Source: Candidatus Doudnabacteria bacterium (GTDB lineage Bacteria > Patescibacteriota > Doudnabacteria > UBA920). Taken from it: a stretch of 64,000 nt of DNA. The DNA lies in assembly GCA_016788665.1 (NCBI GenBank), contig JAEUSF010000001.1, forward strand, positions 129,137 through 193,136. Reading direction: 5' to 3'. Under the pieces are notes generated by a model. The model ran no database searches. It was not told the origin of the DNA and was given only the letters and a program-made list of their open reading frames with translations. The position numbers and the translations under genes were made by a program. Shown in pieces: positions 52,103 to 55,958 of the stretch (its first letter is position 1; each line of letters begins with the position of its first letter).

Positions 52103-55100
52103 TTAAAACAACAAAAGGGTATATGGTGGATGCCTAGGTAATAGAAGCCGACGAAGGACGCAGTAACCTTGCGAAACGCCTCGGGGAGCTGGTAAACAAG
52201 CTTTGATCCGGGGATGTCCGAATGGGGAAACCTATATCGCGGAAGGCGATATGTTTTTGTATCGTGGGATACAAAAAACGGGAACCATGCGAAGTGAAAC
52301 ATCTCAGTAGCATGTGGAAAATAAATCAATCGAGATTCCGTTAGTAGTGGCGAGCGAACGCGGAAGCATATGAAATGTAAAAGTAAAAATTCAAAGTGAA
52401 AAATTTTGGAACCCCTCTGGGGTATCTATATTTTAAATTTTGATTTTTACATTTTGCATTTTCATTAGCCCAAACCTGCTTTAGTGTTACTTAAGTCGCA
52501 AGACAAGAGTTTAAAGATTACAGTCGTTGCTAAGCAGGTGTTATAAGTGAAGGTGGTTCGCGGATCTGTAAATCCGTGAGGGGTTAGTGTGTGCTATGTA
52601 GCAGAACACGCCTGGAAAGGCGGACCAAAGAGGGTGATAGTCCCGTATAGCGAAACATCATGCAGTGCCTCACATTTTTTCTTGAGTACAACCAGACACG
52701 AGAAATCTGGTTGGAAGTCAGGTCGACTAAGATCTAAGGCTAAATACTTCTATTGACCGATAGTGAACAAGTACCGTGAGGGAAAGGTGAAAAGCACCCC
52801 GTTAAGGGGAATGAAATAGTTTCTGAAACCATATACTTACAAGGAGTCAGAGCCCTAATCTTGAGCTTTATTGCTCAGGGCGGGTGATGGCGTGCCTATT
52901 GAAGAATGATCCAACGAGTTAATCTTATGCGGCTTGATTAAGTTACATCAGTAACGAAATCGTAGTGAAAGCGAGGATGAATAGTCCGTAAAAAGTTAAA
53001 AATTAAAAGTTCAAAGTGAAAGATTATAGAGTCACCCTTTGGGTGATGCTCATAGTTTAAATTTTGACTTTTAAACTTTTAACTTTTATGTCGCATGAGT
53101 TAGACCCGAAACCCGAGTGAGCTACGCATGGCCAGGATGAACCCCGTATAACAGCGGGGGGAGGTCCGAACCCACTAATGTTGCAAAATTAGGGGATGAG
53201 CTGTGCGTAGGGGAGAAATTCCAATCGAACCGGGTGATAGCTGGTTCTCCTCGAAATAGCTTTAGGGCTAGCGTCGAGAGTTCCTTTGAGAGGTAGAGCA
53301 CTGAATCGAAACCTGCTTCGCAAGAGGTAGGCTCGAACCAAACTCCGAATTCTCAAAGTCAAGATCTCGGCAGTCAGTCCGTGGGCGCTAAGGTCCACCG
53401 GACAAATGGAGAAGAGTCCACACCACCGTCTAAGGCCCCCAAATCCTAGCTATAGTGCAAAGGATGTGGGGTTGCTCATACAACCAGGAGGTTGGCTTAG
53501 AAGCAGCCATCCTTTAAAGAAAGCGTAACAGCTCACTGGTCAAGCGATCCTGCGCCGACAATATATAGGGGCTAAGCTAGGTGCCGAAGACGTGGATTTA
53601 TCCCGCTTTTAGCGGGGTAAGTGGTAGAGGAGTGTTGTATGCAGGATGAAGGCGTACTCGTAAGAGATGCTGGACAGCATACAAGTAAGAATGTTGGAAT
53701 AAGTAATATATATAGAGGTGAGAATCCTCTTCGCCGAATATCCAAGGTTTCCAGGGCAACGATCGTCGTCCCTGGGTTAGTCGATCCTAAGTTTGGGCCC
53801 CAAGGGGTACAAGCGATGGAAAACATGGTTGATATTCCATGACCACCTACAAATTACTTAAGGCGGGACGGATTTTGGTAACATGAGCATAATCTGACTA
53901 TTTATGTTCCTGTAAGCGTAGGGCGGACCTTTAGGCAAATCCGAAGGTCCCTGGTGATTTATATTCTACCTCGCAAGAGATGAATATAGAGAGCCTAAAG
54001 CCTGAATTTATGGGAAAACCGGGCAACTGGAATTTATGTGAACCAAAGTCTCAAGAAAAGCGTCGTAATTATGTTTGTAGGTGACCGTACCGTAAACCGA
54101 CACAGGTGGATGGGGAGAGAATCCCAAGGCGTCCGGCACAATGTTCGTTAAGGAACTCGGCAAAAAAGCAGGTGTACCTTAGGTATATACCTTGCCCTTT
54201 TTTCTGAGATTATATCAAAGGGAAAAAGGGCCGCAGCGAAAGACCTCTCCCGACTGTTTACCAAAAACTTAGGTCCGTGCTAAAGCGCAAGCTGATGTAT
54301 ACGGGCTGATGCCTGGCCAGTGTCAGAAGGTCAAACCACTTGTCGCAAGATAGGTGGCCAAGCCCTGATGAACGCCGGCAGTAACTATAACTGTCCTATG
54401 GTAGCGAAATTCCTTGTCGCGTAAGTTGCGACCCGCACGAATGGCATAACGAGTAGAGGACTGTCTTAACGAACAAGCCGATGAACTTACAATGGCGGTG
54501 AAGATGCCGTCTTACCCGCAGCAAGACGGAAAGACCCTATGAAGCTTTACTATAGCTTGTCATTGAAATTACGTTTTTATTGCTTAGTATAGGTGGGAGC
54601 CTTTGAAGTTTAGGTTCTGGCTTAAACAGAGGCGAAATGTGAAATACCACCCTGTAAGAATGTGATTTCTAACCACGGTTTAACCTCCCGTGAGACAGTG
54701 ACTGGTGGGTAGTTTAACTGGGGCGGTTGCCTCCTAAATGGTAACGGAGGCGTTTATTAAGGTAGGCTAGGTATGGATGGAAATCATACCGATAGTGCAA
54801 ACGCATAAGCCTGCTTGACTGCAAGGGCGGCGACCCGCGCAGGCACGAAAGTGGAAGTTAGTGATCCGATGCGTTCGAGTGGAAGACGCAAAGCCCAACG
54901 GATAAAAGTTACTCTAGGGATAACAGGCTGATCTTCTCCAAGAGTCCATATCGACGAGAAGGTTTGGCACCTTAAACCTCAAAATCGGGGTGCTATGAGA
55001 GTGATCTCATACCAGTGTCTTAGTTCCGTCTTTCCCAAAGTAAAGCTTGGGAAGATAAATAAATCTAAGAAAATAAAATCGGCTTATAACGGAGAACCCG

Positions 55101-55958
55101 TAGTTAATTATATGTGAAATTTTAGTATCTAATTAACCGGCAACCCCGTGGGAAGTCGTTTAGAATTAAGAATTATGAATTAAGAATTATGAATGACTGC
55201 ATACTGCATTTATTCTAAATTCTGCATTCTAAATTCTGCATTCTGAACTGACCCCGTAACGACTGACCCGAAAGGGAAGATTTAAATGAAGAATGAAGAA
55301 TTGTGAATGAAGAATGTCTGCAGAAATGCATTTCATTCTGCATTTTAAATTTCTAAATCTGCATTTTTATAACACGCCGACTCTTGTCTTAAAAAGACAG
55401 GCTATGTCTCGCAAAGAGACTAAGGCCGTCGACAAGAAGATGATATAGTCTACGCCATAAGAAATTATGGAATTAAGTACGATGTCGGCTCATCGCATCC
55501 TGGGGGTGAAGAAGCTCCCAAGGGTTCTGCTGTTCGCAGATTAAAGCGGTACGCGAGCTGGGTTCAAAACGTCGTGAGACAGTTTGGTCCTTATCTGCTG
55601 TGGGTGTACGAAACTTGAGTGGTCGCATCTTTAGTACGAGAGGACCGAGATGCATAGACCTCTGGTGTACCCGTTGTCCTGTCCAGGGCATGGCGGGGTA
55701 GCTAGGTCTAGTTAGGATAAGCGCTGAAGGCATATAAGCGTGAAGCCGTCCACAAGACTAGGTTTCGATTATCTCTTTATTGAGATATACAGGTTCGCGG
55801 AAGACTACCGCGTATTTTACTAGCCGGTAGCGAGTAGTAAGTAGTTAGTAGCAGCAATGCTACAAGCTACGAGCTACAAACTACAAGCTGGTCTATAGGT
55901 TGCAGGTGTAAGAACAGTAATGTTTTCAGCCGAGCAATACTAATCAACCGAAATGTTT
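52103..55958 (+). rRNA. rrl: 23S ribosomal RNA, about 3.86 kb with intron and AT-rich expansion hairpins
   Basis: GGTGGATGCC at 52125; conserved domains throughout; GTACGCGAGCTGGGTTCAAAACGTCGTGAGACAG; 3' end near 55958. Confidence 0.85.
54973..55479 (+). ncRNA. ORF-less group I intron-like insertion at 23S position equivalent to E. coli U2500/C2501
   Basis: splits GGCACCT|CGATGTCGGCTCATC; contains R-like AAGAGACTAAGG and S-like AAGATGATATAGTCTACG (P7 GACTA/TAGTC) and P9-like hairpin ccataagaaattatgg. Confidence 0.5.

Follow-up and report, generated by a model that had tools for sequence, protein, structure and literature searches.

A probable group I intron with a terminal adenosine and two repeat hairpins between U2500 and C2501 of a 23S rRNA gene from a candidate phyla radiation bacterium

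In a survey of rRNA genes from the candidate phyla radiation (CPR) published in J Bacteriol in 2024, 45% of the 23S inserts were group I introns, 222 of them without an open reading frame (ORF); the inserts were grouped about the peptidyl-transferase center, LAGLIDADG versions were found at the same sites, a 23S_rRNA_IVP ORF was present at site 23IS11, and the Saccharibacteria were almost intron-free, with 64 of their 66 rRNA inserts short and non-intron (PMC11270868). The main text of that survey mentions neither the terminal nucleotide of the introns nor repeat hairpins (PMC11270868). Here we analyze a 507-nt insert in the sole 23S rRNA gene of a 64-kb stretch of DNA (hereafter the window), which is very probably a real group I intron of IA architecture, located between U2500 and C2501 (Escherichia coli numbering) in a CPR host. 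The likeness to the surveyed ORF-less introns lies in host group, gene, region, and a group I-like Rfam match; in contrast to the near absence reported for Saccharibacteria, the window copy and at least five GTDB Saccharibacteria species (loci L016, L019, L028, L045, and L048) do carry an intron at this position. We found no paper that treats group I introns under the name "L2500." The window intron is a further case of a described CPR kind, unusual only in its terminal A and its two repeat hairpins; the intron itself adds little, and the points of interest are the clade of relatives that end in A (omega-A) and the hairpin modules that different sites appear to share.

Other described systems bear on one or another of these features. 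The phage T4 td intron (L055, annotated "group 1A") has the same helix order, P7 being followed by P7.1, P7.2, and then P3'; its ORF site is likewise in the P6 loop, and its junction sequences resemble those found here (AAACGGGGAACC versus AUAACGGAGAACC, UAACGACUAUCCCUUUGGGGA in td versus GUAACGACUGACCCGAAAGGGA, and GAGAUAUAGUCU versus GAUGAUAUAGUCU); it differs in its protein-coding host gene, in encoding I-TevI (GIY-YIG), in ending in G, and in being without repeat hairpins. A 23S group I intron of Coxiella burnetii, going by the title of a 2007 report from Raghavan et al., is likewise said to lack the canonical terminal guanosine (omega-G), and reportedly lies at another site, 1917. Unlike that case, the terminal A here belongs to an entire clade, with members in CPR phyla, Elusimicrobia, and Coxiella-like symbionts. 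Intervening sequences (IVS) cut by RNase III, such as the Coxiella IVS with its stem of ~28 bp, also add long stem-loops at helix tips (PMC4990558). Two of the window hairpins differ from these in lying inside an intron that would be removed, and they are built of 7/14-nt repeats with periodic 2-by-2 mismatches. Yeast mitochondrial GC clusters, Allomyces double-hairpin elements, and Neurospora PstI palindromes occur in rRNA variable regions and group I loops, and the core of the Neurospora palindrome, with its two CTGCAG sites, resembles the CTGCA..TGCAG apex described below. These organelle palindromes are GC-rich and mitochondrial, whereas the window hairpins are AT-rich, heptad-periodic, and bacterial, and the likeness is one of description only.

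In an Rfam scan of the whole window, positions 52102 to 55964 matched the bacterial large-subunit (LSU) rRNA with 2227 bits, and the rRNA surrounding the insert is intact. A local permissive Rfam scan shows the LSU alignment breaking after GGUUUGGCACCU at 54972 and picking up again with CGAUGUCGGCUCAUC at 55480. Both edges are fixed to a single base: the first base of the insert (T) differs from the first base of the 3' exon (C), and its last base (A) differs from the last base of the 5' exon (T), so that no one-base shift of the boundaries is possible. In E. coli rrl, the T that precedes CGATG is found 404 nt from the 3' end and is U2500 in the 2904-nt numbering; we counted from the 3' end because the reference, an rrl copy of E. 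coli Nissle 1917 (L053), has an insertion of its own of ~366 nt upstream of position 2500. The preliminary description of this DNA had placed a 507-nt insert at U2500, and by both the Rfam LSU alignment and the E. coli count this is exact. BLAST searches of all complete E. coli genomes with the insert returned zero matches, and no second 23S gene was seen within the window. The intron and its predicted parts are listed below (P, paired helix; J, joining segment).

54973..55479, + strand: whole intron, 507 nt, 35% G+C (Rfam LSU break at 54972/55480; core homologous to 35 GTDB inserts at this site, L2500)
54967..54972, + strand: 5' exon strand of P1, GCACCU, ending in U2500 (6 of 6 pairs with GGGUGC at 54988-54993; pairing in 44 of 44 relatives)
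54984..54993, + strand: internal guide sequence, AUCG and then GGGUGC (first 4 nt the P10 strand, last 6 the P1 strand; read from the sequence)
54994..55011, + strand: P2, a 7-bp hairpin capped by a GUGA (GNRA) loop (pairing and covariation)
55017..55070, + strand: P2.1, an optional hairpin that the shortest relatives do not have (alignment, fold)
55079..55083, + strand: P3 5' strand, UCGGC (partner GCCGA at 55376-55380; compensatory changes in L005, L019, L024, and L029)
55089..55149, + strand: P4-P5 domain, with P4 ACGGAG (55089-94)/CCCCGU (55144-49) and J4/5 AA
Within the P4-P5 domain, + strand: P5 CCG (55098-100)/CGG (55138-40), P5a hairpin 55103-55137, and J5/4 CAA
55150..55157, + strand: P6 5' strand, GGG-AA-GUC (partner GAC-CCC at 55250-55255; GUC/GAC becomes GUU/AAC in 10 relatives)
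55158..55249, + strand: repeat hairpin A, a distal extension of P6, with 14-nt tandem units on both arms and apex CUGCAUACUGCA (repeat search, fold)
55250..55279, + strand: core block, with P6 3' strand (55250-55), J6/7 GUAA (55256-59), P7 GACUG (55261-65), P7.1 CCC-GAAA-GGG (55267-76), and linker AAG
55280..55370, + strand: P7.2 with repeat hairpin B, apex CUGCAGAAAUGCA (repeat search, fold)
55376..55380, + strand: P3 3' strand, GCCGA, in a pseudoknot with P7
55382..55437, + strand: P8 domain, with P8 UCUUGUC/GACAAGA, P8a GAC-A-GGC/GCC-GUC, and P8b GUCUC-GCAAA-GAGAC (55406-55420)
55438..55450, + strand: J8/7 AGAUGAUA (55438-55445) and then the P7 3' strand UAGUC (xGAAGAUAUAGUC kept across relatives)
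55455..55470, + strand: P9 hairpin, CCAUAA-GAAA-UUAUGG (covariation)
55471..55479, + strand: 3' tail AAUUAAGUA, 9 nt, ending in omega-A at 55479 (A common among relatives)
55480..55483, + strand: 3' exon CGAU (C2501 to U2504), the P10 partner that pairs with the guide sequence

The helices follow the order P1-P2-P2.1-P3-P4-P5-P6-P7-P7.1-P7.2-P3'-P8-P7'-P9, as determined by alignment and anchor-based extraction of strands, and the window sequence forms every one of them, with a single A·C mismatch in P4 and with two of the five basal pairs of P7.2 mismatched. At the 5' splice site, U2500 forms a U·G wobble with G54988, which agrees with the earlier observation that the 5' exon ends in U. The guide sequence is kept as AU(C/U)GGGGUGC in the family, and its AUCG at 54984-87, adjoining the P1 strand, pairs with CGAU of the 3' exon at 55480-83 to form P10, a helix that is 98.9% paired across the family and shows no covariation. 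After the P7 5' strand and ahead of the P3 3' strand come two further helices, P7.1 and P7.2, which place the intron in subgroup IA, which Michel and Westhof reportedly defined in 1990 by these extra helices. BLAST gives 97% identity to L042 and L007 over a 35-nt stretch that overlaps the core block at 55250-55279, and the J8/7-P7 strand reads GAUGAUAUAGUC, in agreement with the family consensus GAAGAUAUAGUC. On this architecture, an exogenous G would attack after U2500, the intron would leave by the standard two transesterifications, and exon ligation would then restore the peptidyl-transferase loop; the intron is most likely splicing-competent.

Some of these helices had been recognized in the preliminary description and others had been misplaced. 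The P9-like hairpin before the 3' junction is real (55455-55470), as is the S-like element, which is the P7 3' strand UAGUC; the R-like element AAGAGACTAAGG, in contrast, is not conserved in any relative. The pairing proposed for P7, GACTA/TAGTC, is also conserved in no relative, and the true 5' strand, GACUG, lies at 55261-55265, within the supposed repeat nest, and is the same in 43 of 44 relatives. We rejected AAGAGACUAAGG as an R element: it is a chance look-alike that corresponds to the 3' half of the variable inner P8 hairpin (P8b) in relatives.

Relatives of the insert were collected by scanning one genome per bacterial species (GTDB) for the 5' exon followed by anything but C2501. This junction pattern fit 52 loci, 35 with complete inserts of 285 to 850 nt, and all 35 begin with a short variable leader followed by the conserved guide (GGGGUGC, or GGGGCGC in one clade) and then by a GNRA-capped P2; CCCCGUAWCGACU and GAAGRUAUAGUC are common to all L2500 inserts compared. 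Most of the hosts belong to the CPR (Saccharibacteria and the Gottesman-, Ames-, Woese-, Magasanik-, and Andersenbacteria), together with Elusimicrobia, Coxiella-like tick symbionts, and some unclassified bins, and a scan for members with a long P6 added 97 further metagenome stretches with L2500 introns. The 23S exons of the window show identities of 99% with the exons of L016, 97% with L045, 94% with L042, and 90% with L028, and since three of these four are Saccharibacteria bins, we take the window host, on 23S exon identity, to be a member of the Saccharibacteria, which bears out the CPR host proposed earlier.

Covariation was assessed across 44 distinct cores by comparing pairing with column-shuffled controls. 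P2 is 94.8% paired versus 60% in the shuffled controls (maximum, 67.5%), with 120 compensatory cells, and P8 is 92.9% paired versus 75% (maximum, 78.2%), with 77 compensatory cells; P7.2 (87.7% paired versus a shuffle maximum of 66.8%; 75 compensatory cells) and P9 (89.8% versus a shuffle maximum of 74.6%; 61 cells) behave similarly. P5 is 98.5% paired versus 82% when shuffled, with 16 compensatory cells, and 20, 10, and 7 compensatory cells were counted in P7.1, P6b, and P3, respectively; P8a and P8b covary by eye in the alignment. The insert has the P3-P9 core of group I introns with its P3/P7 pseudoknot, and compensation is found in P3, P5, P6b, P8, and P9. Guide sequence, core, and covarying family together support the group I intron at L2500 that the preliminary description had proposed.

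Several points weigh against this interpretation. The covariation counts rest on an anchor-based extraction of helix strands that parsed 52 of 86 sequences, and P1, P4 (nearly), P6 GGG/CCC, and P7 are without variation and therefore neither supported nor contradicted by covariation. The last intron base is A (55479) and not omega-G, and P7, the guanosine-binding site, is identical in A-ending and G-ending members, with no compensating change. The third position of J8/7 is U in the window versus A in nearly all of the 43 other parsed relatives (xGAAGAUA), only L111 also having U; we take this position to be the equivalent of Tetrahymena A302, which contacts the P1 helix. The A·C mismatch in P4 is common to the window, L008, and L047. 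With these core deviations, activity may be reduced or protein-dependent. The Intron_gpI scan that had been suggested as a check was borderline with respect to whether any group I model scores: the window intron does match RF00028 in a permissive scan (26.8 bits, E 9e-5) and falls short of the gathering score of 50, and no intron was found when Rfam was run over the whole window at gathering threshold.

The low score is owing to the long insertions and not to a missing core. Among six family loci scored, the hairpin-less L029 (59.2 bits) and L005 (57.2 bits) pass the Intron_gpI gathering score over the full model, and L042, L016, L022, and L048 are below it. Long peripheral hairpins lower scores below the Rfam threshold, and threshold-based surveys therefore undercount introns, which may contribute to the reported near absence of introns in Saccharibacteria.

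The terminal A, which the preliminary description had flagged for checking, is real, lies at boundaries that cannot be shifted, and is common among relatives: it is found in 16 of the 35 complete GTDB inserts, nearly always as ..GUA, and in 29 of 42 distinct metagenome relatives, a sample skewed to members with a long P6. A cryptic omega-G at -3 (..G-U-A) was rejected, because the peptidyl-transferase loop would then gain an extra UA, unless the 5' splice site came after C. Five omega-A family members end in AUA with no neighboring G, and L005 is without a G in its last 9 nt, which excludes a hidden omega-G nearby. The second step would instead use the 3'-terminal A in place of G and, because the G-binding helix P7 is unchanged, ligation would probably be slower or assisted. 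A 2020 preprint on tRNA introns is silent on omega exceptions. With about half of the L2500 family ending in A, across several phyla and with the G-binding helix unchanged, these introns constitute a natural omega-A/omega-G series in which to ask how the second step tolerates a non-G end and whether slow ligation is selected; if a large omega-A clade is borne out, the terminal G would be dispensable in vivo far more widely than in the one Coxiella case known.

The longest ORF that overlaps the insert, on either strand, is 44 amino acids, which agrees with the earlier description of an ORF-less intron, and no homing endonuclease is encoded. The ORF-less state had been presented as remarkable, but it is not unusual in view of the 222 ORF-less group I introns counted in CPR 23S genes (PMC11270868). 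LAGLIDADG_2 is encoded in relatives L020, L041, L001, and L046 (153 to 156 bits), and the ORF-bearing relatives are 803 to 850 nt long, with the extra length in the P6 loop in the members that could be parsed. The LAGLIDADG_2 gene would have been either lost from the window intron or never present in it, and without an endonuclease gene, the intron would be inherited vertically and would not home on its own. We considered hairpin A as a remnant of an endonuclease gene and rejected this; it lies at the same P6 site but is pure repeat, with no coding trace.

The ORF content of some relatives is more varied. L033, an L2500 intron of 803 nt, has a 23S_rRNA_IVP ORF (91 bits) in place of LAGLIDADG. 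In the Coxiella symbiont L003, the 832-nt intron has a longest ORF of just 49 amino acids, which suggests a decayed endonuclease gene. The P6 stem of L061 still codes for part of the first of the LAGLIDADG motifs (I-I-G-A-L-L-G-D-G-A-M-R), which marks the loss of an endonuclease gene; similar-looking GC-rich P6 segments are present in L090, L110, and L133.

The middle of the insert had been described as a nest of tandem and inverted repeats that looked like a secondary insertion in one peripheral loop. The listed repeats are all present (the 14-nt units GAATTAAGAATTAT in 2.3 copies and ATTCTAAATTCTGC in 2.4 copies, at 100% match, and AATGAAG in 4.6 copies), but they do not form a single insertion: the core block at 55250-55279 lies between them, and there are therefore two separate hairpins, A at P6 and B at P7.2. 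Both are long imperfect duplexes in which stems of 4 to 9 bp (mostly 4 to 6) are parted by 2-by-2 mismatches, and each arm is a tandem array of 7- or 14-nt units; both arms of hairpin A carry perfect 14-nt copies, with the mismatches in register. Relatives without such hairpins have stems of 22 to 37 nt at P6 and P7.2, with only 24 to 26 nt at the P6 site in L042, L016, and L048 and 22 to 34 nt at P7.2 in relatives, and judged from this alignment, the hairpins evidently replace the short stems. Hairpins A and B would fold on themselves and hence leave the core undisturbed. Among the arms of 59 hairpins examined, 33 of the 44 clearly periodic cases have a period of 7 or 14. The apex of the window hairpins reads CUGCA..UGCA (CTGCA..TGCAG), and L028, L045, and at least seven metagenome loci have a hairpin with this apex at P6 or P7.2; the exons of all these loci are 91% or more identical to Saccharibacteria references. 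In other lineages, repeat hairpins have different apexes.

Hairpins of the same style are present in the mature part of the 23S gene:

52365..52462, + strand: repeat hairpin rA in mature 23S, absent from E. coli (inverted-repeat search, fold)
52989..53088, + strand: repeat hairpin rB in mature 23S (inverted-repeat search, fold)
55826..55885, + strand: repeat hairpin rC near the 3' end of mature 23S, with GUAGUWA units (folding only)

These three lengthen the mature 23S relative to E. coli, and rA and rB have AAAGTNAAAA units in common; in the same lineage, palindromes of 7/14-nt period would also lengthen helix tips of the mature 23S. Four of the five window hairpins head the list of inverted repeats for the whole 64 kb, the fifth (rC) being seen by folding only. 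Sequence likeness crosses sites: A and B are 88% identical over 26 nt, rA and rB are 91% identical over 23 nt, the P6 and P7.2 hairpins of L078 are 93% identical over 75 nt, and hairpin B and the L100 P6 hairpin share 95% identity over 38 nt (E 4e-13). Among the metagenome loci, L068 is the closest by 3' exon, and its GTATAAR units occur at four sites (the rRNA hairpins orthologous to rA and rB, P6, and P7.2), and the hairpins of the window and L068 at orthologous sites have nothing in common. No significant similarity was found between rC and the hairpins at L100 P7.2 or L062 P6 despite their like-looking GTAGTWA units.

The cross-site likeness fits copying between sites, by gene conversion or movement of palindromic modules, together with slippage, and the hairpins would most likely grow by repeat slippage and be kept alike by copying. 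We tentatively suggest, as a possibility short of an even chance, that the five window hairpins belong to one class of palindromic modules with 7/14-nt periodicity that, in Saccharibacteria and certain other lineages, colonize or replace helix tips of structured RNA genes and pass from site to site, as selfish or mutational passengers and not as functional expansions of the ribosome. If so, hairpins should be alike across the sites of one gene, and those at any one site should be unrelated between related genomes. The RNA that contains two of the hairpins would be discarded, and these two are therefore unlikely to serve the ribosome; with repeat hairpins in discarded stems and mature rRNA alike, some rRNA "insertions" of Saccharibacteria may come from a mutational or selfish process and not from selection on the ribosome.

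It is somewhat doubtful that the hairpins instead derive from a small mobile palindromic element whose copies insert into, or take the place of, helix tips of structured RNA genes, with no role for slippage in place and copying between sites. The sequences common to different sites (in L078, in L068, and between hairpin B and L100), the unrelated hairpins at orthologous sites of the window and L068, and the CTGCA..TGCAG apex kept across Saccharibacteria-like loci would all fit such an element. However, no related copy lies beyond the 23S gene in the 64-kb window, bar one arm-like array in a coding gene, and the analysis identified neither terminal repeats nor target duplications nor a transposase, although target duplications would be unreadable in any case because the hairpins replace ancestral stems. 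The perfect 14-nt tandem copies on both arms and the in-register mismatches fit slippage combined with selection for pairing, and gene conversion likewise yields similarity between nearby repeats.

The arm-like array lies at 61605-61640 in an ORF at 60878-62065 (+ strand), where ATTAGAATTAAGAATGAAGAATTAGGAATTAAGAATG is 89% identical to the 5' arm of hairpin A, as one arm with no inverted partner. This ORF is threonine-dehydrogenase-like (PDB 2dfv, E 4e-58), and ATTAGAATTAAGAATGAAGAATTAGGAATTAAGAATG is part of a 14-residue insertion that the solved homologue lacks (..IRIKNEELGIKNGPAHKHN..); directly past the stop of the ORF, at 62085-62122, is a 96%-complementary, terminator-like palindrome, TATGTTACGGATATGCGGATCCGTATATCCGTAACATA. 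In two relatives, longer hairpins that contain ACGGATA-like repeats lie beyond the rRNA genes (L016, 3091-3202; L072, 10572-10642).

That the intron is degenerate, being inactive and either retained in the rRNA or housed in a dead gene, is improbable. The terminal A, the A-to-U change in J8/7, the A·C mismatch in P4, the 180 nt of added hairpins, and the Rfam score below threshold could all be read in this way, and a group I intron retained in the 23S rRNA of a chlamydia-like bacterium has reportedly been described. However, each deviation has company among the relatives (omega-A in 16 of 35, the J8/7 change in L111, the P4 mismatch in L008 and L047), all remaining core positions match the consensus, and the surrounding rRNA is intact (2227 bits) in a window that holds no second 23S gene; moreover, 507 nt retained at U2500/C2501 would disrupt the peptidyl-transferase loop. 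Very improbable, finally, is an IVS excised by RNase III with no ligation, leaving a fragmented 23S rRNA: such elements are well known from bacterial 23S genes (PMC4990558), the same gene has IVS-style hairpin insertions elsewhere, and the insert contains two long near-duplex hairpins, but its ends do not pair with each other in a long stem, the 5' end forming P1/P10 with the exons instead, its site is a single-stranded peptidyl-transferase stretch and not a helix tip, and the whole group I core, needless for an IVS, is conserved and covarying.

Two E. coli records encountered in this comparison have features of their own. The Nissle 1917 rrl copy used for numbering (L053) is annotated as 3270 nt, with its ~366 extra nt between ~2230 and 2500. 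The 2911-bp "plasmid" pLR-72_4 of E. coli LR-72 (L054) consists of one 23S gene that is 80.8% identical to the window 23S segment, versus 60 to 80% for the other 5,434 E. coli records; it may not be genuine E. coli, and the record was unused as a reference. In the window itself, the 16S gene (11707-13166) is short, at 1460 nt, and free of insertions; it lies ~39 kb away from the 23S-5S pair (52102-56235), and the rRNA genes are unlinked.

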